Positions 1,463 to 64,000 of a DNA stretch of 64,000 bases are shown here, piece after piece; position 1 is the stretch's first letter, and the number at the start of each line of letters is the position of its first letter. The notes beneath the pieces are model-generated. The model was not told the DNA's origin, ran no database searches, and was given only the letters and a program-made list of their open reading frames with translations. The stretch covers positions 162,726 to 226,725 of the forward strand of contig CAWJZV010000042.1 in NCBI GenBank assembly GCA_963847445.1, read 5' to 3'. The DNA is from an uncultured delta proteobacterium (lineage in GTDB: Bacteria; Desulfobacterota; Binatia; UBA9968). Made by a program: the position numbers and the translations under genes.

Positions 1463-1725
1463 TGAGACCTCAGATTACCGAGTGCACGACGACGAACCGA
1501 AACTCGGCATATCTCCCGAAAGCACGAAAGGTCGCAATGAAGTCCGCGAAGAGTTTCGGCAATTTGGGAGACAAACTGATTCCGGAATACGATCAGTTCT
1601 GATGCGATTTTCGCCTGTAAACTAGCGCACTTTCGGATCACTTCGTGGGAAGACTTTCGATCATGCCTTAGTGATCCGAGGACTGGCAGGCCATGCCGGC
1701 GCTAGAATTTATCTGGGGGTGAAAC

Positions 1726-2817: not shown

Positions 2818-2819
2818 AA

Positions 2820-2900
2820 GAATGGAGTGTTGGAGTAATGGAGGGGTGGAGTGATGGGTTTCCGACCCAATACTCCAATATTCCAGTACTCCATCACTCC
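2820..2900. repeat. Inverted pair of 8-nt-period repeats (TGGAGTRN / NYACTCCA)
   Basis: tggagtgttggagtaatggaggggtggagtgatggg followed by cccaatactccaatattccagtactccatcactcc. Confidence 0.8.
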
Positions 2901-2924
2901 GGGTGGCGGGCGGGCAAAAAGACA

Positions 2925-4850: not shown

Positions 4851-4852
4851 CC

Positions 4853-4943
4853 CGGAGTAATGGAGTGATGGAGTACTGGAGGGTTGGGCCGGAATTCCGA
4901 AAACCCATCACTCCACCACTCCAATACCCCATCACTCCAATCC
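4853..4943. repeat. Inverted pair of 8-nt-period repeats between convergent genes
   Basis: ggagtaatggagtgatggagtactggagggttggg ... cccatcactccaccactccaataccccatcactccaa. Confidence 0.8.
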
Positions 4944-4945
4944 GC

Positions 4946-6085
4946 TCAGTGATTTCTATTCGTGTCATAGTTTTCGCCCAACTCTGATGCTCCGACAATC
5001 TGCGCGGCGATGTCATGGCGGCCGTGCATCATGTGCAGGTGCATGTCGCGGTAAAAACGTTCCAGCGGATGTTTGACGAATAGCGCCGTCGAGCCGCAGA
5101 TCTCCGCGGTGCTCCAGATGATTTTTTCCAGAGTCTCTTTGGCCATCCACTTGGCTTCGTGAGCGGCGACCATCGCGTCGTTGGGATTATTCTTAAACAT
5201 GCGGACGGCACTGTAGAGAATCAATCTTGCGGCGTCGAGCATGCTTTTAAGCTCGCCGAAGCGCAGCTGCCGGTAGCTGTCCTTGGCGCCGTTTCTTTCG
5301 CGAATATAGGCGAGCGCCCAGTCGTACATGGCGCGCGCTGAGCCGAGATAGTTCGCCGTGAACGCGAAGTTGATCTTGCCCATCCAGTTTTCGCCGAGAA
5401 ATTGCCCCGGCTGTCCCAGCAGATTTTCTTCCGGCACGAAGCAGTTTTCTAAGTATAACCATGGGCTGACGCAGGCGCGCATGCCGGTGGGGCGCCACGC
5501 TTCGGTGTCGATTTTCAAACCCGGCGTGTCTTTGTGCAGCATGAACATGATCGGCTTGGGATGGGAATCCGACGCGACCCGGCCGATCCAGAGCCACTCG
5601 GCCAGGCTCGCATTGGTGGCGTAGTGTTTGGTGCCGCTGACGAGATAGCCGCCGCTCACTTTTTTCGCGCTGGTCGGCGCCGCGCCGTAGGGTTCGGCGC
5701 CGGCGCCGGGGATCAGGGCGCCGCGTTCGAAGGTCGGCGCCAGCCATTTTTTCACCTGCTCATCGCTCGCCATGGCGTCGACCATCATCAGGCCGTTGTT
5801 GTGCACCTGAAAGCAGTGCGCCGTGGATGGATTGCCGTAGGCGAGGTGCTCGTCGATCAAGAAAAAACTCAGCGGATCGTCGCCGTATAGACCGAAGCCC
5901 AAGCCGCCGCGTTTCTTGTCGAGATTGGCGACTAGCCAGCCCTGGCGATGAAGATCTTGGATGTCTTCCACCGGCATGGCGAACTCGGCGTCATAGCCAG
6001 CCGCGCGCGGCGCGATGCGCTCTTTGACGAGCGCGTTAACGCGCTCGATCAGCTGTTGCTGTTCTTGAGTGAAGCCGAAGTCCAA
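4946..6085 (-). CDS. Acyl-CoA dehydrogenase family protein (possibly flavin monooxygenase subgroup)
   Basis: Probable TTG start at LDFGFTQEQQQL; GYLVSGTKHYATN, WRPTGMRA, PLERFYRD motifs. Confidence 0.85.
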   Translation of the reverse strand: MDFGFTQEQQQLIERVNALVKERIAPRAAGYDAEFAMPVEDIQDLHRQGWLVANLDKKRGGLGFGLYGDDPLSFFLIDEHLAYGNPSTAHCFQVHNNGLMMVDAMASDEQVKKWLAPTFERGALIPGAGAEPYGAAPTSAKKVSGGYLVSGTKHYATNASLAEWLWIGRVASDSHPKPIMFMLHKDTPGLKIDTEAWRPTGMRACVSPWLYLENCFVPEENLLGQPGQFLGENWMGKINFAFTANYLGSARAMYDWALAYIRERNGAKDSYRQLRFGELKSMLDAARLILYSAVRMFKNNPNDAMVAAHEAKWMAKETLEKIIWSTAEICGSTALFVKHPLERFYRDMHLHMMHGRHDIAAQIVGASELGENYDTNRNH

Positions 6086-6251
6086 TGGGTGGGTTTCCTG
6101 GTTGAATTTCAGTGCGGATCTGTGCACCACGAGGGACACGAAGTTCGAAGAATTGATTTTTCTTGCTCTGTGCACTTCGTACTACTATCCGTACGACTAT
6201 CCGTGATAGTTTGCGCGGCGTGCGCCAATTTCTCCATGCGCCAAATCCGAG

Positions 6252-6277
6252 AGGGCGGGTTTCAAACCCGCCCCTAC
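6252..6277 (-). repeat. GTAG-type REP palindrome
   Basis: Minus strand GTAGGGGCGGGTTTGAAACCCGCCCT: GTAG head plus hairpin. Confidence 0.7.
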
Positions 6278-6424
6278 AACTCCCGAGTCTTTTTTGCGCT
6301 CTTTGCGTTCTTTGCGGCCATTCTTCTTTCGGTTGCGGCTTCGCTGCGCTAGGTCCTTCGTGGGAAAAGTCTTTCTGTTTCCGGCACTGCCAATGAGAAA
6401 ACACACCGTAGCGTGGCTACGACA

Positions 6425-7411
6425 TTATTTGTAAAGTTCTTTGATGAACCCGGATTTCTCCAGGTCGGCGACGAATGAATTGTCGATGAACTGTTCCGGT
6501 TTGGCGGTTTTGGCGGCGGGATTGATCGCGAAGTTCAGCACCGTCTGCATTGCCGGGACGGATAAATAAGGCGCCGGCTCCCAAGCTTTCACATAGGTGT
6601 TGTAGGTTTCGTCGAGGTCTTCTTTGTTGTCAGTCTTGGTCCATTTGCCGATCACTTGCTTGGTGGTCTCCGGATCGGTGCGGGCGATCTTGGTGGCCTC
6701 GATATAGGCCTGGACGTAGCGGCGCACCTTGTCCGGATTGCTCTTGATGAACTCGCGGGTGGTCGCCAGACCGGCATGGATCATCGGAATATTCCGCGCC
6801 GTGATGTCGACCAGCTCCTTGAGTCCGGCTTGACGCGCTCTCAACGTCGTCGGCGCCGAGACGATGCCGGCGTCGATGCGGCCCTGGCTCAATGCGGTGA
6901 TCATGTCGGGCATGCCTTGGAGATGGGTAATCTGAATGTCTTTGCCCGGCTGCATGCCGGCTTGCTGGAGCAACATGCGTGCCGCCAAGTCGGTGGTCGA
7001 GCCAGGGAGCGTGACGCCGAGAATCTTGCCCTTTAGATCTGATAATTGTTTGAACTCCGGTTTGCTGTAGATCGACAGAACTGCACGATTGAGAATGCCG
7101 ATGATGAAAGCGATGCGCGCGCCGCCGAGGCCGGCTTCGACTAATTCAGTTGCCGGGTTGACGATATCGATGCTACCCGAGAGCAGCGCTTGAGTGCCGG
7201 TGGCCGAAAGCATGTACTTGAGATCCACCGCCAAGCCGTACTTGGTGAAGACGCCTTTGTCCTGGGCGATCCACAGCGGCGCAAAGGCGCCGCCAATGGA
7301 AGCATAGGTTGCCCGCAGCGGCATCAGTTCGGCGCTGCGAGCCACGGTGTTTGCCGATAGGACGGCGATCATGACGGCTAAGAAAAGACAACGGCTACGA
7401 CGAGAGCGCAT
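6425..7411 (-). CDS. NMT1/THI5/SsuA-type ABC substrate-binding protein
   Basis: Signal peptide, APLWIAQDKGVFTKYGL, DLKGKILGVT; intact. Confidence 0.85.
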   Translation of the reverse strand: MRSRRSRCLFLAVMIAVLSANTVARSAELMPLRATYASIGGAFAPLWIAQDKGVFTKYGLAVDLKYMLSATGTQALLSGSIDIVNPATELVEAGLGGARIAFIIGILNRAVLSIYSKPEFKQLSDLKGKILGVTLPGSTTDLAARMLLQQAGMQPGKDIQITHLQGMPDMITALSQGRIDAGIVSAPTTLRARQAGLKELVDITARNIPMIHAGLATTREFIKSNPDKVRRYVQAYIEATKIARTDPETTKQVIGKWTKTDNKEDLDETYNTYVKAWEPAPYLSVPAMQTVLNFAINPAAKTAKPEQFIDNSFVADLEKSGFIKELYK

Positions 7412-7561
7412 CGGAATTCCCCCTCAGAAAAAGTTTAAGCAGATATATTAAAAAATCCCGGGTTGCGCTAGGGGCGGCGATAACATGGTTTCGAGCGCTA
7501 TCTCTTTCCGGGCTGCTTATGGTAGGACGGAATTCGGTAAGCGAAATAATAGGAGGGATCG

Positions 7562-8522
7562 ATGGCCGGTAATTTCTTGCGGGCTTTATGTACGATCCTG
7601 ATCGGTGGGTCGGTGTTGGCGGGCGCGCCGGTGCGAGCGGCGGATGCGCCGCAGAAAATTCGCTTCGTCCACGCCAGCCGAAGCAACTCGATGGCGCCCA
7701 AGCTGATCGCCCAGTCCAAAGGTTTCTTCAGAGCCGAAGGTCTGGAGACCGAGATGATTCAGATGAATCCGCGCTTGGCCGCTACCGCGCTCGTGAGCGG
7801 CGAAGCGGCGTTCGCCGACGCTTTTACCAGTGTCTTTCGCGGCATTCTGCAGGGTTTCCCGATCAAGATCGTCTTCGTGCATCAGAAAAAGGGGCCGTAC
7901 TTTTTACTGGCGCGGCCGGAGTTCAAAGGCGTCCAGCAGTTGAAGGGCAAGAAGCTGGGTGTGGCGACGCTGCGTGGTTCGGATCATTTGGTGGCGGAGG
8001 AGTTACTGCAATCGAAAGGCTTCAATCCAAGCTTGATTCAGGTTCTCGCCGTCGGCGATGCGGCGACGCGCTTTCAATCCCTCAGCAGCGGCGTTGTCGA
8101 TGTGATCGCGGTGGGCACGCCCCATGATCTCATGCTGCGCCAGAAAGGGTTCTCCGTGCTCGCCGGGCCGCCGGAAGTCGGTTTGCCCGGCGCCTGTGTA
8201 TTCACGCCGGAAACGTTTCTCCGTGAAAACCCGCAGACGGTGCGAAAAACTTTGAATGCGCTGTTGCGCGCGCATCAATATATTCTCGAAAACCGCCAGG
8301 AGACCATCCAAGCGCTGCTGCAATGGCTGCCGCAGACGCCGGAAGTGGCGGCCCATTCCTACGATTTCGAATTGAAAACGATGACCAAGAGACGGTTTGA
8401 TGAGCGATGCCGAACTCGAAGCTGTGATGGTCAAGTTGGGCGATAAGAAGCGGCCCATCGACGAAGTGCGGGATTTCTCCCTGGCGCGCCAGGCGATGAA
8501 AGAGTTGGAAGCGGGGAAATAG
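7562..8522 (+). CDS. NMT1/THI5/SsuA-type ABC substrate-binding protein, close paralog of 3901-4850 (frameshift near 8390)
   Basis: Shares MIQMNPRL, FRGxLQGFP, KKGPY, HDLMLR, GPPExGLP, WLPQ and KKRPxDEVRDFS blocks with the paralog. Confidence 0.85.
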
Positions 8523-8540
8523 CCGCGCTACCGCGCGGTG

Positions 8541-8618
8541 GTTAGGGGTGAGGGGGTAAAGGGTAAGGGGTTCGGAGTCGGGGTGGACGCCTAACGCCTC
8601 ACCCCTGACGCCTTACGT
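8541..8618. repeat. Inverted pair of ~7-nt-period repeats between convergent genes
   Basis: ttaggggtgagggggtaaagggtaagggg ... acgcctaacgcctcacccctgacgccttacg. Confidence 0.7.
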
Positions 8619-8626
8619 TTTTTTGA

Positions 8627-9034
8627 CTATTGTCGCGCGCCGAAAGTGTTCTGCTGAATCATCCAATCTTTTTGCGGCGACAGGTCGACGCGTTTGTTGT
8701 CGATGTTCTGATCCTTGGCGGTGACGCGGAGCACTTCCAGCGCTTCGCTCGAGGCGCTTTCGAACCAGTACTTAAAGCCGCGCGGCACCAAGAGGCCTTC
8801 GCCCTTTTGATATTCGCCGATGACCTTGTCGCCTTCGCCGTAGAATCGCACCGCGCCGCTGACGACATACCAGAAGGCATCCTCGCCGGTGTGGGTGTGC
8901 AGATTATTCTCGCCGCCGTCTTTGACCACCTGGACTTGAACCTTCATCAAATCGCTGTTGCAAACCTGCCAGGTTTTCTTTGGGCCCTCGAACTCGGGGG
9001 TCTTATGTCGAAACTCTTTTGTCTCCTGTGCCAT
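8627..9034 (-). CDS. Cupin domain protein
   Basis: GGENNLHTHTGEDAFWYVVSG and LLVPRGFKYWF cupin motifs; SD-like GAGG upstream. Confidence 0.85.
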   Translation of the reverse strand: MAQETKEFRHKTPEFEGPKKTWQVCNSDLMKVQVQVVKDGGENNLHTHTGEDAFWYVVSGAVRFYGEGDKVIGEYQKGEGLLVPRGFKYWFESASSEALEVLRVTAKDQNIDNKRVDLSPQKDWMIQQNTFGARQ

Positions 9035-9176
9035 GGGTCACCTCGTTTTGAAGATTTGCTCCACCATAATCCCGATTGGGGACGGCGGTCAAGGCGGCCA
9101 GCGATTGAAAATAATCTCCAGCCGTTGACGGTTTATTGTCGGGTATATTATTTATGCCGTCATTGAAGTGAATCCG

Positions 9177-9450
9177 ATGAGTCGATGCAAAGTTTCGTTG
9201 CTGGCGATTTATCTGTTCTGGCTGTGGCCGGCCTTAGCCGCGGCGCAGAATCTGCCGCTGCTCAATATGGGTTACAGCGGCGCGGGCATCGGCTCGGATT
9301 TGCTGAAAGTCATCGAGCGCGCCGGTTTGTGGCGCAGGCATGGCATCGACGTGCGGACGATCTATCTGTCGAGCGGATCTTTGATGGCGCAGACGATGTC
9401 GTCGGGCGACATCGGCGTCGCCGGCTTCGATACTCCGGCGATGGTGAACG
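9177..9450 (+). pseudogene. 3'-truncated NMT1/THI5-type binding protein (signal peptide plus about 70 aa)
   Basis: ERAGLWRRHGIDVRTIYLSSGSLMAQTMSSGDI then homology stops and the frame runs into a palindromic repeat. Confidence 0.6.
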
Positions 9451-9498
9451 TAACCTCGTTTGGTGCAATATCTTTAGGCGGCTCGAGTCCCACTCTAC

Positions 9499-9580
9499 GT
9501 CATGCCCGCGAAAGCGGGCATCCAGGTTCATTCCGGGATGATAGAGAAAACAACTGGATTCCCGCCTGCGCGGGAATGAC
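9499..9580. repeat. Inverted pair of GTCAT-CCCGC-N4-GCGGG-ATCCAG palindromes (dRS3/REP-like)
   Basis: gtcatgcccgcgaaagcgggcatccag ... ctggattcccgcctgcgcgggaatgac. Confidence 0.75.
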
Positions 9581-9622
9581 GAATAAGAAGATCGATCGTC
9601 GAAAAGGCACAACAGGTAAATA

Positions 9623-10978
9623 ATGAATGACTTAGTTATCACAAATGCGCTGATCATTCCGATGAACGAAGAGCGTCAATTCTTCAACGGCTATGTGCGC
9701 GTGCGTGACGGTGCGATTGCCGAGGTGGGTGCCGGCGCGCCACCGGAAACGGCCAAGAACGAGGAGATGCTTGACGGCTCGGGCTGTGTGCTCATGCCTG
9801 GCCTGGTCAATGCTCATACCCATCTCTATCAAGTCTTGCTGCGCGCGGTGTGGGAAGACCTGGAGTTGATGCCGTGGCTGAAGCGCATCTACGGCTGCGC
9901 CCGGGTGCTTACTCCGGAGCATTTCTACACGGGAAGTCTGCTCGGTTGCTTGGAATCGATCCGCGGCGGCGTGACCACTGTCTGCGAGCATAATTTTCTC
10001 AATCCCAGTCCCGAGTGTGCGCTGGAGACGATCCGGGCGATGCGCGATGCAGGTTTACGTTCGGTGTTTGCCCGGACGATTATGGATACCGGGGAGATCG
10101 TGCCGGAGTGTACCAAGGAAACGCCGGAACAGGCGTTTCGTCTCATCGAAGCGCTTCTCGCGCGGCATAAAAATTCTCAGCAGCTCACTTTCATGACCGG
10201 GCCGAACACGCCGCCGATCAACACGACGCCCGATCTGCTCCGTGAAGTGCGCCGCTTCGCCGATGCCAATTCCCTTGGCATCAGCGCCCATGTCGCCGAG
10301 TCGCACTCGGTGGTTGAAGCGGTGCGCCGGCAGCATGGCAAGAGCGGCGTTGTCGAATTTTTGCATCAATTCGGCATTCCAGCCAAGAATTCGATCTTCG
10401 CCCATTCGGTGCATGTTTCCCAGGATGAAATTCGGCATTCTCAAAGAAACCGGCTCGTCGGTGTCGCATAATCCGGTGAGCAACATGATGTTAGGCGATG
10501 GCGTGGCGCCGGTGGTGGAAATGCTGCGCCAAGGCGTCAACGTCGCCCTCGGCACCGACGGCGCGGCGAGCAACCATTCACAGGATCTGTTCGATACGAT
10601 GAAGGCGGCGTCGCTGTTGCAGAAGGTTCAGCACCAAGATGCCGGCGTGATCAAACCGTACGATGTTCTCGCGCATGGCGACCATCGGCGGCGCCAGGGC
10701 GTTAGGTTTAGACTCGCTCTGCGGCACCATCGAGGTCGGCAAGCGCGCGGATCTGATTCTTGTCGACATCGACACCGCGCATAACCAGCCGATAAACGAT
10801 ATCTTCAGCCAGATCGTCCACTGCGCCAAAGCCAGCGATGTCCGGACGGTGATGATCGACGGCGTGATCGTCATGCGCGACCGCCAGCTCGCGGGCCTCG
10901 ATGATAAGAAGATATTGGCCGACGCCAAAGCTCGCCAACCGCGATTTGCTGGAGCGGGTGAGCGGCTTGGCGTTCTAA
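9623..10978 (+). CDS. Amidohydrolase, MTA/SAH deaminase (MtaD/SsnA/AtzA)-like (three indels)
   Basis: MPGLVNAHTH, SAHVAE, FAHSVH, SHNPVSN, ALGTDGAASN, ATIGGARALG, GKRADL motifs across three frames. Confidence 0.85.
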
Positions 10979-51622: not shown

Positions 51623-53953
51623 CAGTGGTCGGACAATCGGTATATCGCAAGGACGCTAACCCGAAGGTCACGGGACGGGCTTTGTACGTCGGCAATATCG
51701 ATATGCCGGGTATGCTCCATGTCGCCGTATTGCGCAGTCCGTATCCCCACGCGCGCATCTCGCGCATCGACAAATCCAAGGCCGAGGCGTTGAGCGGCGT
51801 GGCGCTGGTAGTCACGGGCGCCGAGATCGCCAAGATGCCGGGGATCGATCCCCACTTCGGGCCGGCGTTTCGCGACCAGCCGATTCTCGCCGTGGAAAAG
51901 GTCTGTCATGTCGGCGATCCGGTGGTCGCAGTGGCGGCGGTCGATAAGCGCACGGCCGAGGATGCGCTTGCAGCTTGGTTGAGATTGACTACGATCCGTT
52001 GCCGGCGGTTTTCAATGTGCTCGATGCCGTCACAGAACAATCGGCGCTGGTCCATGAAGTGCATCGGCCGGCCAAAGCGTTCGCTGATCTGGCTCATGTC
52101 CAAGCCGGCCAAAAATCCAATATCTGTTATCAGTTTAAACTACGCTTGGGCGATGTCGACAAGGCGTTCGCTGAAGCCGACCGGGTGTTCGAAGATCAGT
52201 TCACTTCGCCGCCGGCGCAGCATGTGCCGATGGAGCCGCATGTCACGCTGGTCTATCTCGACGAGCATGAACGGCTAAACATCTGGACCGCCAGCCAGTC
52301 GCCGTCCTACGTGCGCACGGAAGTGTCGGCGACCTTCGGCATCCCGATGCACCGGATTCGCGTGCGCGTGCCCTATCTCGGCGGCGGTTACGGCGCAAAG
52401 CTTTACGCTAAGCTGGAACCGCTGGTGACGCTTCTGGCGCTGATCACAAGAAAACCGGTGCGTTACGCGTTGACGCGGGAAGAGGAGTTTCTAACGTCAC
52501 CAAGCATGGAGTGGTGACCAAGATCAAAACGGCGATCAAGAACGGCGCGATCACGGCGCGCAAGTGCGAAGTCTATTGGGACACCGGCGCCTATGCCGAG
52601 ATCGGCCCGCGCATCGGTCATAAATCGGGGTACACTTCCGCCGGGCCGTACAAGATCCCAAACGTGTGGATCGACTCTTATTGTGTGTACACCAACAAGG
52701 TTCCCGCCGGCGCCTTTCGCGGTTTCGGCGTGCCGCAGGTTATCTGGGCGTACGATTCGCAGACGGACATGATCGCGCGCGCCCTCGGTGTCGACCCCGT
52801 CGAATTTCGGCTCCGGCCGATGCTTGACGAAGGCGAGGCGTTTGCCACCGGCACGTTGGTAAAGTCCTTCGGCATTAGACAGGCGACCCTTCAAGCGGCC
52901 CAAGCCATCGAATGGTCGAAACCGCGCGCGGCCCAATCCGGCACCAAGTTTCGCGGCAAAGGCATCGCCGCGGGTGTCAAAGCGGTGCTCACGCCGTCGA
53001 TTTCGGGCGCTATCGTGATTCTCAACGCCGACGGCACGGCCAATGTCTTGAGCAGCACGGTGGAAATGGGCCAAGGGTCGGAGACGACCATGAGTCAGAT
53101 CGTCGCCGAGGAGTTGGGCATCACCGCCGACGAAGTCCATATCGTTCAGCCCGACACCGATGTCACGCCTTACGATACCATCACCGCCGGCAGCCGTTCG
53201 ACTTACCATATGGGCAACGCGGTGCGGATGGCTGCCGCCAAGGTCAAGGCGGCACTCTGCGACGTGGTCGCGTCAAAGCTTGAGGTCGATCCCGACGATC
53301 TGGCTGCGGGCAAGGGGCGCATTTACGTCCGCGGCCTGGAAGAGCGCGGCATGACCATCGGGCAAATTTTTTTGGCCAAGTTTGGCAGCCTTGGCACCAC
53401 ATTGGCGGCCGAAGCGGTTTGCCAGCCGAGCGCGGCCCATATGGATCCCGAAACCGGCCAATCTGAGAAGTGCACGGAGTACTGGTTCCCGTCGGCGACC
53501 GCTGCCGAGGTCGAGGTTGACACCGAGACCGGGCAGGTAAAAGTGCTTCAACTGGTGAGCGTCGGCGACACTGGGACGTCGATCAACCCGCGCCATTGCG
53601 AGCAGCAACTGCAAGGAGCTGCGCTCATGCACCTGGGGCTCACCATGTTCGAGGAGATGATTTTCGAAGACGGACAGCTGATCAATGGTTCACTGCTCGA
53701 TTACCAAATCGCGTCGATCAAAGATATGCCGGAAGTGGTCCGTCCGGTGGTAATTGAGGTGCCTCATGAGGACGGGCCGTTCGGCGCCAAAGGGGCCGGT
53801 GAGACCGGTGCCCTAACGGTAGCGCCGGCTATCGCCAACGCGATCGACGACGCCGTCGGTGTGCGCATTCGCGATTTGCCGATCACAGCGGAACGGGTGT
53901 TACGAGCGTTGGTCGAGAAAAACGACTCAAGTGGCGCGGGGTTAAGTTCATGA
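51610..53953 (+). CDS. Xanthine-dehydrogenase-family molybdopterin subunit (indels)
   Basis: KVTGRALY, LRSPYPHA, QHVPMEPH, GGGYGAK, AFRGFG, EMGQG, TAGSR, GAKGAGE. Confidence 0.9.
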
Positions 53954-54432
53954 AACGCGAGATTCACTGACGACTCAACCAGCGGGATGAGCGCATTGCC
54001 ATCGACGACGCCGACACGCTGCTCGAAGTCTTGCGCGAGCGCTTTAAGTTGTGGAGCGTGCGCGAAGGCTGCGGCGTCGGCGCCTGTGGCACTTGCACGG
54101 TGTTGCTTGACGGCAAGCCGGTGAGCTCGTGTCTGCTGCTTGCTGCGCGTGCCGCCGGCTGCGACATTCTCACGGTCGAAGGCTTGAGCGAAGGTGAGTC
54201 GCTGCATCCGATTCAGCAAGCTTGGGTCGAAGAGCGCGCCTTGCAGTGCGCCTACTGCACGCCGGGTTTTGTGCTCTCGGTCAAAGCTCTGCTCGACGAG
54301 AACGCCGATCCGAGCGATGACGAGATTCGCGAATACCTCGCCGGCAATCTCTGCCGCTGCGCCGGCTATGCCGATATCCTGCGCGCGGTCCATGCGGCGC
54401 GGGTGAAGCTTAAAGCTACAGTCAATCGCTGA
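53950..54432 (+). CDS. 2Fe-2S subunit (CoxS-like; indel near 53980)
   Basis: GCGVGACGTCTV..SC, QCAYCTPG, GNLCRCAGY. Confidence 0.92.
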
Positions 54433-54650
54433 TCAGTCATCCACTCCCGCTCGCTGCAATTCCACAATTTGAACATTTCTGTCGTTATGGGGGTCTGAAG
54501 GCAACTTACGACATTTTTGTGCCGCTGCAGAGTAATTTGTCCGTTGCGCTGCTATCGATTTGCCCTGGGTCAAAGTCACCGACGTTTAAGTCGTTAACAA
54601 AGTTAAACAATTTCTAGTGGTGGGAGCTACTCAGCAAGCTTTAGCGTCGC

Positions 54651-54665
54651 TGGCACGCAATGTGC
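54651..54665 (+). promoter_or_regulatory. Probable sigma-54 promoter
   Basis: TGGCACGCAATGTGC with GG-N10-GC spacing, 54 nt before ATG 54720. Confidence 0.6.
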
Positions 54666-54719
54666 TGATTGACCCGAGTGAGGCTGAAGACTTAAACGAA
54701 GAATGTAGACGGCTAACCT

Positions 54720-56619
54720 ATGGTAACGAGACAGAGCGCGGATTCCAGCAACAAGAAGCGGTCTTGGAATTTGGATTGGATCTTTGATGCCGCTAAAAAA
54801 GACACAGTCATCCGTTTGCGTTGGCCGTTGGTCATTTTTTCCTCGTATCTGCTCTACTACGCGCCAGTCGAGTGGTTTACGCCGACGCAGGTCCAAGCAA
54901 TTCTGAGTCTCTATCTTCTGAGCCACGCCACACTGTATTTTTTGGCGGATGATTTCTTCGATTCGCCGTATTTTTACGGGCCTTTGTTGATCTTCGACAG
55001 TTTGGTGTTGATTGTCGTCTTGAGTGCCAGCAGTGCGGCCACTCCCGACTTTTACATCGCCTGTATAGTTACTCTCGATCTTGAGTGTCATTTGTAACGA
55101 CGCGCGCGGTCTTTTGGTCGTCACGTTCCTGGCACCGCTGCTCTACGGTTACGCGCTATTCAGCTCGTCGACGGTCATAAAGCCGGCGCTCTTTCTCCAG
55201 TTGCCGTTTCCTTTTGTGATCTCACTCTTCTACGGCTACTTCGCTCAAGTCGGCAGAATGCGCCGATTGGCACAGGTAAAAGAGCAAGAGGTGCGGCGCG
55301 AGCAGCTGGCCGCGGAAGAACTGCGCCGCCAGCGCGAGCGCTTGGAGGCGATGCATGAAGTCAACGTCGCCGTGACATCGACCAACGAAACTCGAAGCAT
55401 TCTCACTGCGCTCTTAGAGAAAACCTTAAGCCACTTGCCCTATGCCGCGGCGCTGGTTCGGTTGCGCGATCCGCAGTCGCAGCTGGTCGAGACGGTTGCC
55501 GCCAAGGGCTTCGATACCAAAGAGCGGTTGGACGCGGATACGCTCAGCTATGTCGATGGGATCATGAAAGCCACCGAGCCATTGATCGTGCGCAACGTCT
55601 TTGCCGATGCGCGGTTCGAGAATTTGGCGTTTTTCAAGAAAGAAGGTTTGGTGTCGATCATCGGCCTGCCGCTGGTGGCCAACCACGAAACCCTCGGCTG
55701 CCTTGTCTATGGAGCCCGTGAAGAACATGGCTTTGGCGCTGAAGAAGTCGAGTTTTTAGACACGCTAGCCGGCCAAGCCGCCATGGCGATCCACCACTCG
55801 CAGTTGTACCGCCAAAGCCAACAGCAGACCGAAGCACTGCGTCATGCGCACAAGATCAAAGATGAGTTTCTCAAGGTGGTGTCAAACGAATTGAAAACGC
55901 CGCTCAGCGTGATCGCCGGTTACACCGACATGTTCAACCAGGGATTGTTGGGCCAACTGACGCCGATTCAGGAGAAGGCGATCGCAACCATTGAGCGGCA
56001 GTCGAAAGAGCTTGGCGGTCTTATCAACACGGTTCTGCGGGTGAGCGATATCGAGTCGGAGGCTCTGTGCGCCAGCGAGAATGAAATCAATCTGTGGGAA
56101 TTTCTGTCCGAGCTGCGCTCGCAGTACGATACCCCTCGGGAGAAAAACGTCAAACTCATCTGGGATTATCCGGCGGATTTGCCGACCATCCAAAGTGACC
56201 GGCCCAAGCTCAAACGCATTGCCGAAAATCTGATCAACAATGCCGTCAAGTTTACCGAGCATGGCACCGTGACGATTTCGCTGTACTATTTGGCAGCGGC
56301 CAAAATTCTTGAGCTCACGGTGGCCGATACCGGAATCGGTATGGCGAGCGAACGGCGCGGCGTGATCTTCGAGAAGTTCCGCCAGCTACACGATTCCCAA
56401 CGGGTACCGCAGCATGGCGGCATCGGATTGGGACTCTACATCGTCAGGAAGTACATGGACATTCTCGGCGGTGAGATTCGCGTCGACAGCGAGCCGGGAA
56501 AGGGCTCGACGTTTACCATGCGCATCCCGATAGCGCTCTACAAACAAGCGATGCTGCACGAACAGCTTTTGCTGCCTACCGGAATCGAAACACCAAGGGT
56601 TGGTATAGAGTTAAGATAG
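54720..56619 (+). CDS. Multi-TM GAF sensor kinase-like protein; H-box His replaced by Asn (indel near 55075)
   Basis: TM bundle, GAF domain, KDEFLKVVSNELKTPL, NLINNAVKFT, DTGIG, GIGLGL. Confidence 0.82.
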
Positions 56620-56648
56620 TTGCAGCGCCCAGAAGCGGCGCAGAATAT

Positions 56649-57215
56649 TTAGCGCGGCGTATCGGAAATCGCCCGGTTGCCACGTTTCAAATACATTTTA
56701 ACCCAATGGTCGTAAAGATTGTCGGGCCGAAAGACGTCGATCCGTTTGCGGCCCTGGGCGGTCTCGACAACAATGCTGACGGATAGCTCCTGCCAGGATA
56801 CCCCGAGCAGTCGTTCGTTGCGCTGTTCAACCAATGCCCCGATGGTGCGCATGAGCTGAGATAGACCGTGACCGTCGGCGCTGCGGCTGTGGCGCCGCCG
56901 CAGTTGGCGGCGGTCGCGCTCGATCCGGTCAAGATCCTGGAACGAATAGCGTAATCGCTTGGCGGGCTGCGACGAGGCATTGGTATAGGTCTCTTCTTGG
57001 CCGATCGCACGCGGCGCAATGCGATTCTTCCAAAGTTTTTGCAGGCGATTGCGGCTAATTCGCAGCAGCGGATTTTGGCTCGTCGTCGGCGACTCTGGGC
57101 GCAGCCAAACCAGGTAATTTTCGCTGGTGCATTCCAAATTGAATCTGTCGAGCTGAAGGTTCTCCAGATCGTGACCAATAACGCGCAAATGGCGCGCGTA
57201 ATCGCTATTGCCCAT
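56649..57215 (-). CDS. Hypothetical protein (basic, internal L-R-x-I-G repeat)
   Basis: Intact 188-aa ORF; YARHLRVIGHDLE and LSQLMRTIGALVE. Confidence 0.6.
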   Translation of the reverse strand: MGNSDYARHLRVIGHDLENLQLDRFNLECTSENYLVWLRPESPTTSQNPLLRISRNRLQKLWKNRIAPRAIGQEETYTNASSQPAKRLRYSFQDLDRIERDRRQLRRRHSRSADGHGLSQLMRTIGALVEQRNERLLGVSWQELSVSIVVETAQGRKRIDVFRPDNLYDHWVKMYLKRGNRAISDTPR

Positions 57216-57219
57216 GAAT

Positions 57220-57480
57220 CTATTGTTCTTGTGGGTATTGGGCGTCGTCGCCGGAGTCTGGTCCCTGCTGACAATCAATTTCAAGAGTCCGCGTTTGAAT
57301 GGCCGCGGCGCGCGCCGAACCCCTCTGCAAGATACTAAACACAGGCAATTTATAGTTGCAATTGAGGCAAAAGTTAGTCACCGCGACTTGGACGGCTTTG
57401 GGCAACCGCTTTGAGATGGAGAAGCCGAGATAGTAACCGCACTTGGGACAAGACCGGGCACGATAGTTAGACATCAACAT
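57220..57480 (-). CDS. Small Zn-ribbon-like protein
   Basis: CPKC...CLNC pair; stop lies 5 nt before the next ATG. Confidence 0.5.
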   Translation of the reverse strand: MLMSNYRARSCPKCGYYLGFSISKRLPKAVQVAVTNFCLNCNYKLPVFSILQRGSARAAAIQTRTLEIDCQQGPDSGDDAQYPQEQ

Positions 57481-57760
57481 ATTCTTTTCGGTGTCGGTTT
57501 TTATTCGTATCGTCGGCGAAAGTCAACAAATCAGCGCGGCTTTACCGCTAGAATCGAGGCGCGCTTTTGTTCTCACGCATTTGGGTGGTCTAATTTCTCA
57601 CGCTGTCATGGTTTGGCTACAATTGCGACGAATCTGCTGGGACTCAATGCCAAGAGGTTTTTTTCCGGGTTAAAATAATTAAGCCGTTCAAGCCGTTAAA
57701 ACGGTTGAGCCGTCAAAGATGCCAAAGCTGAAAGACTGCTCCTGGCTTTGCTCGTTGGCG

Positions 57761-59065
57761 TCAAACTTCGGTCGGTTTGTCAGCCTTGCTCTCCAACGAC
57801 GCCAGCGCTTTTTCCATCAATGCAATGCGCCAGCGCCGTTCTTCCTCGGCGGGCAGCTCCGGCTGGCCGACGGGATAATGAAACTTATTACCGCCGACGA
57901 TTCTGCCGACGCCAACTTGCGCGGCGACGTTGGCTAGGCAGGTGATGAGCACCACCGGGATTCCTTGTTTTTCAATTTCTTTGGCGATCGTAGCGCCGCT
58001 ACGCGTGCCGGTGCCTCACGTCGCAGTTAAGATGACTGCGTTGACACCGGAGTTCGCCAGTTCCCCGGCGATGCCGGCACCGAGCTCAGCCATCTTGCTG
58101 GGCATCGCGCCGGTGCCGGTGGTGACGAAATAGCGCTCGTGAAGTTTCTTGAAGCGTTGGGCCTTCTCCAGCTCGCGCATTGCATCCAGCGGCAGAATGC
58201 GGTCGGGATCTTGATCCACCATCGAGGTGTCGTAGCCGGTATGCATGGCTGCGAATTCGCCGCACTTCAAATCGTCCAGCCCGGCCAGCGAATATTTGAA
58301 ATACCGCGAGCCGCGCGAGCTTTCGAGCCGATCCGGATTACCCTTGGGCACGAGACCGCCTTCGGTGACGAGAGCCACTGTGGCGTCCTTCAAACTGCCG
58401 GTTAGATTGGGAATCGCGTGCTTCGCGGTGGCTATGACCGGAATCTCGCTTGCGTAGGCTTCGCCGTTAAGCTTGGCGAGCAAGAGATCGACGGCGCGGA
58501 CATAATCCGGCTTGCCGGTTCTGACGGTAAAGCGGCGTGCAATCGGCAAGCAATGCTCGGCGCGAAAGGCTTCCGCGGCCGCGGGGTCTTGCGCTATCAA
58601 TAGTTCAAGCAGCGCGGAAAAGCGTTTTGCCACTTCAGCCATGGACGCCGTGGAGGCGCCGGTTTGCACGACGAATACTTGGCGGCCGATCTCCTGTGTG
58701 CCCGGATTGTTTTCATGCATGCCGGTGATTGCCGGAATGCGCCAGTTGTCGCGCACCCAGCTGCACGCCTTGGCGCAGGCGATACCGTAGCGGCCGGCGT
58801 TGAAGGCTGGGCCGGCGAGGAAGAAATCGGGCTGAAACTGGTCGACGGCGTTGCGCATCGCTTGCAGCGCTTTCTCTTCCTGTTCATGAAAGTAGTTGTC
58901 GCCGCAGGCCAGCGTTGCATACGCGACGCCGTGCTGCTGCAGGCTCTTTGCGATTTCAACTCCGATACCGACCGCCTGTGGTAAAAATATAACTTCCTGT
59001 CCGGCCTTCTCTTCGCCGCCGATACCGGCGAAAAACTGATTCAGATAATGGAGCACTTTGATCAT
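57761..59065 (-). CDS. grdB: Glycine/sarcosine/betaine reductase selenoprotein B family; Sec at codon 350 (TGA 58016-58018)
   Basis: HYLNQFFAGIGGEEKA, CGDNYF, AGPAFNAGRYG, ALVTEGGLVPKGNPD; ILTAT-TGA-GTGTRSGATIAKEIEKQGIP continues in frame to 57761; SD GGAGG. Confidence 0.92.
57989..58003 (-). promoter_or_regulatory. Candidate bacterial SECIS hairpin
   Basis: CGTAGC-GGC-GCTACG perfect stem starting 12 nt after the TGA. Confidence 0.7.
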
Positions 59066-59104
59066 CTGATGCCTCCTCCAGGAATGGTGCAAGATTTGGG
59101 AACA

Positions 59105-59190
59105 TTCACCGCCGAGACGCAAAGGACGCGGAGAAATGTATTGTTGATAGATGTTGCTCCTAGCTCCGCGTCCTCTGTGCCTCTGTGGTG
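59105..59190. repeat. Inverted pair of 9-nt-period repeats between grdE and grdB
   Basis: ttcaccgccgagacgcaaaggacgcggag ... ctccgcgtcctctgtgcctctgtggtg. Confidence 0.75.
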
Positions 59191-59215
59191 CAATTCTTCT
59201 CGCAATTCAGTGGCC

Positions 59216-60502
59216 TTATGTTTCGTATGCCGCGCGAAAACCGCTCATGCCCATCTTGCTATAGGAACCGAAGAAAATCGTCGGGTCGAAGAGAAAAGGT
59301 TCACGCGCGTCATGGCGCGCTTTCAAGTGGAGGTCGATCTCAGGCCCGCCGATGACGCTGGTGAGCGGGGGAATATAAATTTTCTCCGATACGTTGCCGC
59401 GGCTGATCATGCCATCGGCCTCTTCTGGATGATCGACCAGCGGCCGCTCGTAGCCCTTGGGGCCATTGGATTCATGCAACACTGCGGCGGTCTTGATGCC
59501 TTCATCTTCGCATGCCTTGACGGTCTGCATGAAATCGACGGTGCCGTTGCCGGTGCCTTCCATGAAAGCCAGCGCGCCGTCAGCGTCCAAATTTCTTGCC
59601 AGCCGCGCCACCCACAGGCCCATCTTCTTTTTCTGTTCGAAGCTGTCGTTATAACCGCGCGACAAAATCACGCCGCGAAAGTTCACGCCCTGGCCGTGGC
59701 GGTTGAGCAATTCCCATATAAACGGATTGTCGCAGTGGAGCGAGGTCGGCAGCTTGCGCTCGCTCGTAAAGTTGCCGCTGACCAGCGCGCCGTCGAAAAA
59801 TTCCGCCGGATGGACGAATGTCGGCAGCGTTCGTGAGATTTCTTCGCCATAATAAAATGTCCGGGCGCAGCGCACTTGGCTTTGCACTTGGTAGATCAAG
59901 ACCACTTTGGGCAGACTCGCGTCCACCGATGTGAGCCCAATCCTGTGGCGCTGGGGCGCGGCGTGGTGCTTTTCCGCTTGGGCAATAAGGCGCGCGCAGC
60001 GCAGCGCCATGAGCCGGAGCGCGTGATCGAAGCCCGCATTGGAGACAGAAGCATCGGGAGTGAGCGACAGCACCAGATGAAAACAATCCGAGCCGTAGGA
60101 ATAAGGTGCGCCGACGCCGCTCATGTCGAGAATGCCCTCGCGCTGTTTCTCGATGGGGCTCAGTTCGTCGGCATGAGGGAAGCGGCCGGCGACGGTAATG
60201 AGCAGGTTGCGAATTCGCATTGTCTGTCCCGTTCCCACGAGAGCTGCGGGACCGTCGAATCCTGGAAAAGTCGAGCCGCCACCGGCGACTTTGGCGATCG
60301 GCAGGACCGTGTCGAGCACATGGACGATGCGCTTGGCTTCGCCGGGACGAGCGAGTTCGAAATCAACCCCGATGCCGTGACCAAGCTCGTCGATTTGCTT
60401 TTCAAGCTCGGCCCGGCAGAGCGACAGGGCGGCACCGTCAAGCCGCGTGCGCTCGCCCCATCCGAGTTCTCCGATTGAATAATCGAGCAGCTCCAGTTCC
60501 AT
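59216..60502 (-). CDS. Glycine/sarcosine/betaine reductase component B proprotein family (GrdE/GrdI-like)
   Basis: MELEL start, LARPGE..RI, FPG, VGTGQT, REGILDMSGVGAPYS, PTFVHPAEFFDGALVSGN, HGQGVNFRGVI, EGTGN. Confidence 0.88.
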   Translation of the reverse strand: MELELLDYSIGELGWGERTRLDGAALSLCRAELEKQIDELGHGIGVDFELARPGEAKRIVHVLDTVLPIAKVAGGGSTFPGFDGPAALVGTGQTMRIRNLLITVAGRFPHADELSPIEKQREGILDMSGVGAPYSYGSDCFHLVLSLTPDASVSNAGFDHALRLMALRCARLIAQAEKHHAAPQRHRIGLTSVDASLPKVVLIYQVQSQVRCARTFYYGEEISRTLPTFVHPAEFFDGALVSGNFTSERKLPTSLHCDNPFIWELLNRHGQGVNFRGVILSRGYNDSFEQKKKMGLWVARLARNLDADGALAFMEGTGNGTVDFMQTVKACEDEGIKTAAVLHESNGPKGYERPLVDHPEEADGMISRGNVSEKIYIPPLTSVIGGPEIDLHLKARHDAREPFLFDPTIFFGSYSKMGMSGFRAAYET

Positions 60503-60615
60503 CGCGCGATCCTTTCGACAAACGGCACGCTCAACGTTTATCGCGGCAGTAAGCTCGGTGTCAATGAAGTTCGCATCACCCCGATGCGGGTGCCGCACTG
60601 GAAGCAGGGTATTTC

Positions 60616-61000
60616 TTAAAATCGCGCGTTGACCCACTTTGCGACGTAGTCGAAAAAGTTTTTCACCGAATTGGAATAGTGCCCCTTAGATTCATCGCAC
60701 TCGGTGCATGGCGTGATGCCGTGGGTGGCGCCTTCGACGGTGATGAAGTCCTTGCCTTTGCTTTTGGCGACTTCGTAGTGGATCTCATTGTCGCGGATAA
60801 AGTAGTGGCCGCCCATGGCGCCAAACAGGACCGGGACGGAAATGCTTTACAGCGCGCAGACGGTGGAGTAGTTGTCCGAGCGCGGATCTAAGCACGGCAC
60901 CATGTAGCCGCGCTTGGCGAGCTCAGTGCATGCAAGACTGCCCATAACGTTGCCCGTGCGATGCACGACCAAGATGCCCAAAAGGGCGGCCGGCAACGGC
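60616..61000 (-). pseudogene. Alpha/beta-hydrolase-like gene with a large internal deletion and premature stop
   Basis: GILVVHRTGN..ACTELAKRGYMV..PRSDN joined directly to STVCAL*SISVPVLFGAMGGHY..VEGATHG; TAA at 60847-60849; no start codon. Confidence 0.6.
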
Positions 61001-61104
61001 GAAAAAATGTTGCCTATACGCACCGCGAAGCAATGGCTGCTTGGTCAGTAACCTTGCTGCGGCCGAAGCATGAGTCGGCTCTTAGCAAAAGGCGGAGGAA
61101 AAAT

Positions 61105-61162
61105 GGAGCGCGGGCTTTCTAGCCCGTGCTTCTGGTTTTGCGGACAGGAATGTCCGCGCTCC
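61105..61162. repeat. GGAG-headed REP-like inverted pair (related copy near 19261-19313)
   Basis: ggagcgcgggctttctagcccgtg ... gcggacaggaatgtccgcgctcc. Confidence 0.65.
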
Positions 61163-61234
61163 TGTTTATCGCAATTCGGCGCTGGAGCGGAAGGTGTCGG
61201 CGGCTACAATGCGATTTCGCCGAGGGTACGGCTA

Positions 61235-62717
61235 CTACTCCGGCGATGCCGGGAAAATCAGCGACTTGATGACCACCGGCGCGGCGCCGGAGGACGGAAT
61301 GAGCGCGCCGACGTTGATGAAGTCGAAGTCGCTAAGCGCGATGCCGTCGATGGAAATGATCGCGCTGTCCAGCTTCAGCTCTTCCTGGCAGTGCAGGCCG
61401 ATGATGCCGCCGATGTCGCCATCGTTGACTAAAACGAGTGGATGGCCTTTGGCGAGAATGTCTTTGAGACCTTCGGCCACGCCGCTGCAAAACGCTTGCA
61501 GGCGAAAAATGTCGCTGAGCCGTCCCAGTGAAAGGCCACGGCCACCGGCTGGCGGCCGTGCAGCATATCGAGGCGGCGCAGCGCGCTGAGTAATCGCGTC
61601 GCGCACCGAATCCTTGCTGAATTCCTCCTGAGCGAGAGGGAACTCCGGCGCGACCACGGCGATGTTGCGCACTGGCACCGCGTCGTCCGGCATGATGAAG
61701 ATGGTGTTGCCGCTCACTTGCACGGTGTACTGGGAGGCACCGATGACGGTGGCGCGGATGCGCGCGTTGGGTTCCATCATGAACAGGCCCAGGTTGCCGG
61801 CGCGTTTGCGCACTTCGTCGGCGATCAACGGCCCCAGGTCGCCGAAGCTGGTCTTGGCGCGATTGTAGATAAATTCCGAGACTCCGCCGGAAAACATCAC
61901 GCAATCGATCTCGCCGGTGTAGCTTAGCGGCGGCAAGCGCAAAAGGTTTTTGACGTTGTCGTCGATGTCGGCGGGTTTCAACATGGCGAACAGCTTGTCG
62001 ACCATGCCGGAAACCATTTTGCGTAAATTCTCTTCGGCGATTTTCTCGCCCATGGCCACCGAGAAGCCGGCCCAGCCAGCGTGTTCGCGGGCGGCTTCTT
62101 CGATGCGCACGACGGCGCCGTCTTTGTCGAAGGCGAGCAGGCGGGCACCGATGTCGATGGCCGAGACTTCCTGGACTTTGCCGTTGTTGCAGACGGCGAA
62201 CTTGCTGGTGCCGCCGCCGATGTCGATGTTCAAAACCACGCCGCCCATTTTTGCCGAGTGGGCCACGGCGCCCGAGCCGTGGGCGGCCATGGTCGCTTCA
62301 AGACCGTCGCCGGCGCTGACCGCGACGAACTTACCGGCTTCTTGAGCGAACAGTTCGCCGATGGCGCGGGCATTGCGCCGGCGCACGGCGACGCCGGTAA
62401 GGATCAACGCGCCGGTGTCGACTTGTTCACGGCCAATTTTGGCGATCTTATATTGGTCGTTGATAAACTTGCCCAAGGCTTCGACATCGATTCTTGTGTC
62501 GTCGACGTAGGGCGTCAGGAGGATTTGTGATTCGTTGATCACTTCGCGCTTGGTCACCCGATAGCGCGATCCTTCGAGGGTTAGTTCGAGGCGCGAAAAA
62601 ACCAGATGGGATGTCGACGATCCAATGTCGACGCCGACGCTGGTGAGCTTGAGGTTTTCCTCGTCTTGCATGTGGCGGTTGGCATTGGAAAAACGAACCT
62701 CTAGGTGCGGTGGCCAT
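61235..62717 (-). CDS. eutA: EutA-like reactivating factor (ASKHA/actin-fold ATPase; indels)
   Basis: SVGVDIGSSTSHLVFSRL, DTGALILTG, GKFVAVSAG, NIDIGGGTS, FSGGVSE, IRATVIGASQ, PVVIKSLIF. Confidence 0.85.
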
Positions 62718-62771
62718 AATTATTCCTGACAATTCTCAGTCGATGTTAGAAAGCGTTTGGGAGTGTGACGA

Positions 62772-62834
62772 TTTCGGGTTTCGAGTTACGGGTTTGGTGT
62801 TAACCCGAGACTTGAAACCCGTAACTCGGAACTT
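62772..62834. repeat. Inverted pair of 7-nt-period repeats
   Basis: tttcgggtttcgagttacgggttt ... aacccgagacttgaaacccgtaactcggaactt. Confidence 0.75.
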
Positions 62835-62837
62835 GGG

Positions 62838-64000
62838 CTAATAGGAGTTCTTGTAAAGGTCGGGTTCCATGCGCGATTTGGCGCCGACTGCGGCGAGGGT
62901 TTCTTCGAACTCTTTGCGCAGGTACGGATCTTCCTCGTTATATGGGATCGCCGTGCCGCCGTCTTTCATGTCGATGGCGCCGTAGTCGATGCCTTTTTCA
63001 CCGGGCTTGCCGCGATCGCGACCAGGGGCGTTGGGGCCGGACGAAGCCGCGAGACGCAGCGGCTCTTTGCCCGCGCCAAAGTGAGCGTGGAACCAATTCC
63101 CGCTCATTGGCGCGGCGCTGACCATGCCCACCGGTTCATAGTCCTGTCGTCTAATTTTTTCCGTTGTGCCTTTTTCCCAGGGATGGGTGCCCAGTACTGA
63201 CGGCCAGGTGTAGGTATATCCCTTGCCGCTGAGGAAGCTACACGGCGGCGGAGCCATGGGCGTGGGCTTTCGAGTAGCGCCCGGTTTCACGCTGGCCGAT
63301 CCACATGTAGAACTGCTGGCCGGCCATATGCGGTTCGATGCGCCGGTAACCCGGCGAGCGCCGGTTATCCATGGGCAACTCGCAAGCCATCACGTCCGGA
63401 ATGATATTGGTCTGGCGCATGGCGAGACCGCGCAGCGGATCGGGTGTCACTTCTTCTTTGTACTTGTAGTAGTCGTCGCTCGGATCGAAACGATCTTTGA
63501 AGTGATAGGGGCAATTGAAAATAAAATCGTCGTTGCCGAAATTATTCATAACGTTCGGCGCTGTAGTGCCGGCCAACAGCAGTGCCGGACTCGAGGTCGC
63601 ATTGACGATGCGATGGGTGGCATTCATGGGGATGGCAAACATCGAGCCTTTTTGCCATTCGAAGGTGATCTTTTTCGGATTGCCGTCGATCCAAACTTCC
63701 GTGGTGCCGCGGCCGTCGACGACGAGGTATTGTTCTTCGTACAAATGCTTTTCGGGATTCAAAGCGCCGGCGCCGGGAACCTCAACAACGTAGCAGCCCC
63801 ACAAACCTTCGGTGCCGAGAAGCTGAATAAAGGTGCCGTTGCCGCCCATGCGCTTCCACGGCTTGCGCGGTAAGTCCTGTACGCGGCGCACGCCGATGTC
63901 CCGATAGATCGGAATACCCTGCGACTCCATGTAATTGTCGTAAGGCGTGTTGGGCCGGAGAAATTTCCCATACCCTGCCCGGGTCTTATTATCCGTCGGT
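62838..64000 (-). CDS. Bicupin protein; 5' end outside window (indel near 63235)
   Basis: EKHLYEEQYLVVDGRG..FEWQKGSMFAIPMNATH and YSKAHAH..GKGY..WFHAHF. Confidence 0.82.

Follow-up and report, generated by a model that had tools for sequence, protein, structure and literature searches.

A Clade of GrdB-Family Selenoproteins with a UxxGxxS Motif in Uncultured Binatia

Described relatives of the gene analyzed here include the selenoprotein B components of glycine reductase (GrdB), sarcosine reductase (GrdF), betaine reductase (GrdH) and D-proline reductase (PrdB). According to those parts of the papers cited throughout this text that were available to us, UxxCxxC, where U is selenocysteine (Sec), is the stated motif of GrdB, GrdF and GrdH (PMC6778437, PMC13188914), and a B component without it has been labeled “likely a pseudogene” (PMC6778437). 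The pyruvoyl group of GrdE, the partner subunit of GrdB, derives from Cys242 (PMC9908766). FarB, from the fluoroacetate reductase of Cloacibacillus, is described as having no CxxC after its Sec, and its unprocessed partner FarE, like GrdI of betaine reductase, as having no cysteines for pyruvoyl formation; several protein B complexes, FarB/FarE among them, are said to feed one common GrdA system (PMC10838667). Here we report on a GrdB-family selenoprotein gene in which both motif cysteines are replaced (UxxGxxS). It lies in a 64,000-nucleotide stretch of contig CAWJZV010000042.1 (assembly GCA_963847445.1, positions 162,726 to 226,725) from an uncultured member of the Binatia; this whole stretch is called the window, and coordinates refer to it unless a contig is named.

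An In-Frame UGA, a SECIS Hairpin and the Selenocysteine Machinery

The gene occupies 57761..59065 on the minus strand and comprises 434 codons followed by a TGA stop, with a GGAGG placed 7 nucleotides ahead of its ATG. Its sole internal TGA is codon 350 (58016..58018, minus strand), read here as Sec350, and translation bears out the preliminary description, in which this codon joined two pieces of the open reading frame (ORF) track (58016-59122 and 57761-57955, both on the minus strand) into a protein of 434 residues. The local sequence around the TGA is VILTAT-U-GTGTRSGATIAKEIEKQG. The motif thus reads TAT-U-GTGTRSG, i.e., U-G-T-G-T-R-S, and codons 353 (GGC, Gly) and 356 (AGC, Ser), which span 57998..58009 on the minus strand, stand at the sites of the two motif cysteines, so that the UxxCxxC printed for GrdB, GrdF and GrdH is not what this protein carries.

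The protein belongs to the glycine/betaine/sarcosine/D-proline reductase selenoprotein B superfamily, as shown by an end-to-end match to NCBIfam TIGR01918 (371.2 bits, cut-off 65.45); the Pfam GRDB domain (PF07355) matches residues 1-349 with 361.7 bits (cut-off 22). All four models for individual reductases score it below their cut-offs: 333.6 bits for glycine reductase GrdB (TIGR01917, cut-off 602.2), 374.8 bits for sarcosine reductase GrdF (NF040794, cut-off 800), 361.7 bits for betaine reductase GrdH (NF040795, cut-off 775) and 95.7 bits for D-proline reductase PrdB (TIGR04483, cut-off 300). For comparison, a set of 71 family members was drawn from this genome, its relatives and sampled Bacillota; it comprises 66 distinct proteins and 63 distinct SECIS stretches, and the TGA of the window gene falls in the same alignment column as the TGA of all 71. 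Loci that pass the NCBIfam GrdB equivalog cut-off (of which L043 and L073 were re-scored) read LTST-U-GTCTRCGATMVKEIE, in agreement with the earlier statement that GrdB has two cysteines beside its Sec.

Compared with glycine reductase GrdB/GrdE, the window protein shares the fold family, length, gene pair and SECIS, yet is only 38–41% identical to loci passing TIGR01917 and lacks their UxxCxxC. Compared with betaine reductase GrdH/GrdI, it shares the family (PF07355/TIGR01918), the Sec column and the type of SECIS hairpin, but it is 36–39% identical to loci passing the GrdH cut-off and falls in a separate clade; GrdH retains U-G-T-C-T-R-C, whereas both cysteines are missing here. PrdB belongs to the same superfamily and likewise has Ser at U+6, but it has Cys rather than Gly at U+3, a length of about 240 residues and a pyruvoyl-bearing partner, PrdA.

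Downstream of the UGA, a selenocysteine insertion sequence (SECIS) element at 57978..58015 (minus strand) matches Rfam SECIS_4 (RF01990) over the full model, i.e., over the 38 nucleotides that follow the TGA, with a hairpin core CGUAGC-GGC-GCUACG at 57989-58003. The match scores 33 bits, below the Rfam gathering score of 38, with an expectation (E) value of 3.9e-6 in 201 nucleotides and of 1.8e-4 when 9 kilobases (kb) are searched; canonical loci score 42–65 bits on this model. The consensus of SECIS_4 corresponds to the coding sequence of canonical GrdB, in which the CGUAGC/GCUACG hairpin forms the helix. The window element and SECIS_4 have in common a 6-base-pair stem, a 3-nucleotide GGN loop and a start 12 nucleotides past the UGA, while a consensus U-A pair becomes A-U in the window.

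Across the 63 distinct sequences, standard pairing is seen in 97.9% of the 378 cells that the six hairpin pairs make up, compensatory changes occur in three of the six pairs, and none of 500 shuffles equals the covariation score; hairpin registers slid out of place pair in just 8–59% of cells. The pair 25-33, which joins base 1 of the U+6 codon to base 3 of the U+8 codon, is AU in 37 sequences, UA in 25, GU in one and unpaired in none, and the pair 24-34 is CG in 31, UA in 31 and UG in one. The A-U and U-A counts indicate that Ser AGC accompanies GCU while Cys UGC accompanies GCA. This pair covariation upholds the compensatory change first proposed from the window alone, and it offers a natural example of a Cys-to-Ser change in a protein that is tied to a synonymous compensatory change preserving a SECIS stem.

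A search of the genome for the selenocysteine machinery, which had been put forward as a check, found all the parts: selA (569.8 bits), selB in four adjacent pieces in different frames, selD (360.3 bits) with an in-frame TGA of its own, which would give a Sec-containing SelD, and one tRNA-Sec. The three sel genes form one cluster at G000:C14:191492-195726 (G000 being this genome), in which selA is broken near its end. Because other genes that are broken in the window are whole in a second contig of the assembly (C32, below), the breaks in selB and selA, like that in grdC, are taken as indel errors of the assembly, which they probably are. Judged from sequence, UGA350 is decoded as Sec with a GrdB-type SECIS hairpin located within the coding sequence, and the window gene is a genuine selenoprotein gene, given its TGA, SECIS, the 84 conserved codons past the TGA and the sel genes.

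We give almost no credence to a sequencing or assembly artefact, or to a TGA that is a true stop between two genes. Such a view could draw on the many frame breaks in this assembly and on the behavior of gene callers, which end at the TGA and leave matches listed at 348/349 residues. The same TGA, TAT-U-GTGTRSGAT (with Gly353 and Ser356) and an invariant 15-nucleotide hairpin nevertheless recur in all 12 homologues from genomes of other species (64–94% identity), and TGA, motif and hairpin are also identical in C32, which is 98% identical to the window contig. Two further studies provide DNA contigs: one from run X1 spans 57700-58303 with 0 differences, and a 2.6-kb contig extends over the entire gene (about 96.5% identity), with none of the listed differences, which leave out 39 weaker ones, falling at 57790-58099. 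Together with the compensatory A-U/U-A pairs, this agreement settles in its favor the earlier claim that the motif is not a read error. RNA runs contain 0.06-0.08 of the sequence words; two of them yield short contigs only, at about 87–99% likeness, and those RNA contigs that reach the SECIS are unanchored at either end and may derive from paralogues.

The UxxGxxS Clade and the Range of Motifs in the Family

We built a tree of 66 GrdB-type rows and five PrdB rows (quick IQ-TREE search, LG+G4, PrdB as outgroup) and mapped the motifs on it. All 14 UxxGxxS rows fall in one clade, with a support of 99 in the Shimodaira–Hasegawa-like approximate likelihood ratio test, and all 14 have Gly at the 353 site and Ser at the 356 site. 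Protein identity within the clade falls to 43% (the divergent member L056) with the motif unchanged. The single clade, and scores that lie below the equivalog cut-offs for GrdB, GrdF, GrdH and PrdB, bear out the distinct subfamily that the preliminary description proposed.

Of 24 other genomes of the genus, 17 have an orthologue (62–94% identity), whereas none was found in 16 genomes from two other families of the order or in 400 sampled genomes of the phylum; these counts take in an unpublished genome, G559, which has no orthologue. A metagenome protein search returned at least 120 matches, nearly all of 348/349 residues and ended at the TGA by gene callers, and more than 100 of these shortened relatives are at least 74% identical to the window protein. 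One match, P0036 (434 residues, 62% identity), has W at the TGA position and retains GTGTRSG. Several studies have runs from biofilters, sediment, soil and drinking water that contain near-identical DNA. The clade is conserved among a set of uncultured bacteria from soil and sediment. A 273-residue protein with a GRDB domain, P0219, reads VTAT-T-GTGTRSGAA, with Thr in place of Sec, and is 46% identical to query residues 219-432; it may be a relative of the UxxGxxS clade that uses neither selenium nor a thiol.

UxxGxxS is one of nine forms that we saw among the 66 GrdB-type rows. The eight other classes are UxxCxxS (19 rows), UxxCxxC (17), UxxSxxC (6), UxxSxxS (5), UxxDxxS (2) and UxxDxxC, UxxGxxC and UxxCxxA (1 each), and Bacillota include UxxSxxC, UxxDxxC, UxxGxxC and UxxCxxA forms. 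All six loci above the TIGR04483 cut-off have the PrdB motif UGTCHRSA; PrdB is thus UxxCxxS, and a characterized reductase already has Ser at U+6. The claim of a new motif therefore stands in one part, the replacement of both cysteines, and falls in another, since the change is not singular in view of PrdB, the eight other classes and FarB. The literature that we searched contained no mention of UxxGxxS, UxxSxxS, UxxCxxS or UGTGTRSG and no description of a UxxGxxS clade; nothing on this clade appears in the available portions of PMC1976440, PMC1794560 and bioRxiv 10.1101/2022.07.06.499078.

This genome alone has four distinct paralogues, with UxxGxxS, UxxSxxS, UxxSxxC and UxxCxxS motifs, and the canonical UxxCxxC is found in none of the four. 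Their motifs read UGTGTRSG, UGTSTRSG, UGSSTRCG and UGTCSRSG, and they come from six loci with one TGA each, two of which are strain copies: C24:74236-75507, C4:66981-68289, C17:213421-214692, C25:1929-3202, C32:4407-5687 and the window gene on C42. GrdB-family paralogues number 20, 9 and 7 in the relatives G003, G004 and G002. With four to twenty paralogues per genome, the host lineage, which lies outside the classical strict anaerobes, has a large set of putative enzymes for reductive bond cleavage. Another clade, formed by the 19 UxxCxxS rows (loci within L050-L109, relatives G002-G004), has a private cysteine of its own in HPCGDP, about 50 residues past the Sec, in 19 of 19 rows versus 6% of canonical rows.

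The published label “likely a pseudogene” for B components without UxxCxxC (PMC6778437), as well as the several broken genes of this assembly, would fit an inactive or decaying paralogue in which the loss of UxxCxxC marks a pseudogene. The clade behaves otherwise, and we consider decay very improbable. The frame is intact, neither the TGA nor the SECIS has been lost, and all 14 rows share one motif even though protein identity falls to 43%. Within the clade, the third-codon positions of the hairpin are frozen (five of five invariant), whereas the flanking ones vary (10 of 11). Conservation past the TGA matches that ahead of it: among the nine closer clade members, identity is 71–100% over the 84 residues after the TGA versus 62–93% over the 349 residues before it, and for the divergent L056 the values are 53.6% and 39.8%. 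UxxCxxC has been used in print as a functionality test for GrdB-like genes (PMC6778437), and since a form free of this motif is under clear selection clade-wide, such a test would wrongly discard real enzymes.

A Partner Subunit and Two Clade-Specific Cysteines

Upstream of the selenoprotein gene lies the gene for a GrdE/GrdI-like partner subunit (PF09338, 300.4 bits) at 59216..60502 on the minus strand, with a likely start at ATG 60502 in a frame that is open to 60637. A partner gene is immediately upstream in 10 of 10 close loci that retain upstream DNA, a PF09338 partner adjoins most family members examined, and all four long representatives are PF09338-PF07355 fusions; adjacency and fusions together argue that the partnership is real in the family. 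The spacer between the two genes (59066-59215, minus strand, 150 nucleotides) is predicted to form a long hairpin, GGACGCGGAG...CUCCGCGUCC, with a minimum free energy (MFE) of -55.1 kcal/mol; in L015, the corresponding spacer is 12 nucleotides only.

We aligned 30 partners, six of them from the UxxGxxS clade. Partners beside loci that pass or near the GrdB cut-off read SGN-C-VSAC and those beside GrdH read SGS-F, while the clade partners read SGN-F/Y-K/T, all six having Phe or Tyr where GrdE has Cys242. The window partner, which has no SGN-C-VSAC site, carries Phe245 there (59768..59770, minus strand, numbered from ATG 60502), as GrdI also has Phe instead of the pyruvoyl-site Cys. With Phe at this site, the partner would be unable to make a pyruvoyl group in the known way, and on the strength of the alignment we take it to be without pyruvoyl-forming ability. 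The different chemistry envisaged in the preliminary description is plausible on these grounds, as a Phe stands where GrdE has its pyruvoyl-forming Cys.

Two cysteines elsewhere in the pair are nearly private to the clade. Cys376 of the selenoprotein (TGC, 57938..57940, minus strand), immediately past the strand that follows the Sec helix, is conserved in all 14 clade rows and absent from the other five main motif classes. In the partner alignment, Cys257 (59732..59734, minus strand), within HC[D/A/S/N]NPF and 12 residues past the GrdE pyruvoyl site, is found in six of six clade partners and in two of 24 others; one of these two outside holders is the L091 partner, whose selenoprotein is the sole one outside the clade to carry Gly at U+3. 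Cys172 of the selenoprotein is also Cys in 13 of 14 clade rows.

An AlphaFold2 model from a 46-row alignment (mean predicted local distance difference test score, pLDDT, 91.8) has strand 343-347, Sec350, helix 351-365 and strand 371-375, followed by Cys376. Since the strand ends of such a beta-alpha-beta unit lie side by side, the modeled layout, taken without coordinates, suggests that Cys376 is probably close to Sec350. The lone Sec nucleophile of the preliminary description is uncertain, because Cys376 (14/14) and partner Cys257 (6/6) could serve as the thiol in place of the motif cysteines. No solved structure matches either subunit by sequence, and Foldseek with the model found generic two-domain alpha/beta binding-protein matches only (template modeling scores 0.16–0.29), which provide no functional lead.

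A Proposed Reaction and Its Genomic Setting

With moderate confidence, we propose from these sequence features that the pair may form a pyruvoyl-independent, substrate-specific protein B that feeds GrdA and resembles betaine or fluoroacetate reductase. The enzyme would act like GrdH/GrdI or FarB/FarE, without activation of the substrate as a Schiff base: the selenolate of Sec350 would attack a carbon with a good leaving group to yield a selenoether, and the alkyl group (of the carboxymethyl type) would move to the single-copy selenoprotein GrdA, whose gene lies beside grdC, where it would be reduced with thioredoxin-type electrons. The thiol function ascribed to the motif cysteines, guarding or resolving the selenium, would either be dispensable or be shifted to Cys376 or partner Cys257. 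The hand-over to GrdA would presumably be common to this pair and GrdH, and FarB/FarE serves as a precedent for the combination of no CxxC with an unprocessed partner. Taken with FarB, the clade suggests that pyruvoyl-independent Sec reductases form a wider class, acting on bonds besides the C-N bond of glycine. A more specific version, which we regard as speculative and on balance unlikely, would have the selenium-guarding thiol moved to Cys376 or partner Cys257, giving a pyruvoyl-free Sec-plus-remote-Cys site that, in soil bacteria equipped with oxidases, cleaves the C-X bond of a substrate that is quaternary or not an amine (such as a sulfonium, halo-acetate or oxy-acetate type) and feeds GrdA-GrdC without GrdD.

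The genome contains one copy of GrdA, with its TGA, as do 22 of 26 genomes of the genus in all. Its gene directly follows that of the GrdC beta subunit at G000:C4:214454-216464 (L116, L120, L121), the latter being split over two frames (397.8 and 124.2 bits). Upstream of grdC-grdA lie four tandem TrpX-like binding-protein genes, and NMT1/SsuA-type binding-protein genes recur near several paralogues, a weak lead on substrate.

Several observations weigh against the proposed GrdA-feeding protein B. GrdD (NF040747) was found neither in this genome, which is 91.8% complete, nor in any of the 26 genomes of the genus, so that protein C either lacks a part of the canonical form or departs from it, and the hand-over to GrdA/GrdC is unproven; protein C would be one without an alpha subunit, or with an unrecognized one. 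The likeness to FarB was judged by its published description and through the partner score alone, and the window partner reaches 98.3 bits on the FarE model NF053623 (cut-off 675). No conserved neighbor that would indicate a substrate was seen among the loci scanned. A search of window positions 55000-64000 for riboswitches and other RNAs, with E up to 1, returned only the SECIS and a chance microRNA match, and in 10 related loci no RNA element attained its gathering score. The tree comes from a quick search in which the motif columns were kept in and few lineages were sampled. The SECIS_4 score stays under its gathering score, as given above, and the fold of 65 nucleotides past the UGA has an MFE no better than that of shuffled sequences (z -0.46) and lacks the hairpin, so that comparative pair counting and Rfam were needed. 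Finally, selB, selA and grdC are split into frames in this assembly, for which real decay could also account.

The failure to find GrdD in any of the 26 genomes also speaks for the main rival, a stand-alone PrdB-like reductase that would work without GrdA or GrdC. Here Sec350 would form the selenoether, the relocated Cys376 or partner Cys257 would attack the selenium and release the product, and the resulting Se-S bond would be reduced directly by a dithiol or thioredoxin. Two private conserved cysteines are in place for this chemistry, Ser at U+6 is common to PrdB, and no grdA, grdC or thioredoxin gene stands beside the pair in the loci scanned. The protein, however, is a full-length GrdB-type protein of 434 residues that scores far below the PrdB cut-off (95.7 versus 300 bits) and has PrdB outside it in the tree. 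PrdB chemistry requires the pyruvoyl group of PrdA (PMC11229817, available part), which is impossible for the partner here, and 22 of 26 genomes of the genus retain GrdA in single copy, even though the four paralogues here are all non-canonical. We judge this rival to be improbable, though not negligibly so.

The proposed protein B also differs from FarB/FarE in its host lineage and habitat, and neither a farC (radical-SAM) nor a farA (antiporter) gene was seen among the neighbors scanned. Genes for heme-copper oxidase subunit I are present at G000:C28:46463, C6:23873-25208, C34:204288-205705 and C43:28513, in line with the oxygen-dependent pathways noted earlier for this genome; gene content thus sets the organism apart from classical strict anaerobes. 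Of these genes, the one on C34 is fragmented and has a TGA within the match.

About 730 nucleotides upstream of the partner gene lies a gene for an EutA-like ATPase (PF06277, 61235..62671, minus strand, 356.9 bits), which scores below all EutA equivalog cut-offs; it is treated here as a neighbor only. A scan of 24 kb revealed no gene for ethanolamine ammonia-lyase. Farther upstream, a cupin-domain gene (62838..63999, minus strand) is frameshifted and cut by the contig end, and is intact with 421 residues in C32. The EutA-like and cupin genes are common only to the two closest loci that retain upstream DNA (L015, L017), and a GNAT gene, a 206-residue ORF and a 277-residue ORF are each confined to few loci. 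The 277-residue ORF lies directly downstream of the selenoprotein gene (56649-57480, minus strand), has no Pfam or NCBIfam match and is 85–91% identical in the closest relatives; C32, L016 and L017 carry it whole, whereas a frameshift interrupts it in the window and in L015.

Contig C32 is probably a second strain within the bin, for which contamination is 6.91% and completeness 91.8%. Its positions 1-10623 repeat the last 10.6 kb of C42 (window 53367-64000, G000:C42:216092-226725) at 98.06% identity, after which it continues, and its far end matches the end of C44 at 94.5%. Between C42 and C32, genes that are broken in one copy, such as the cupin gene and the 277-residue ORF, are intact in the other.

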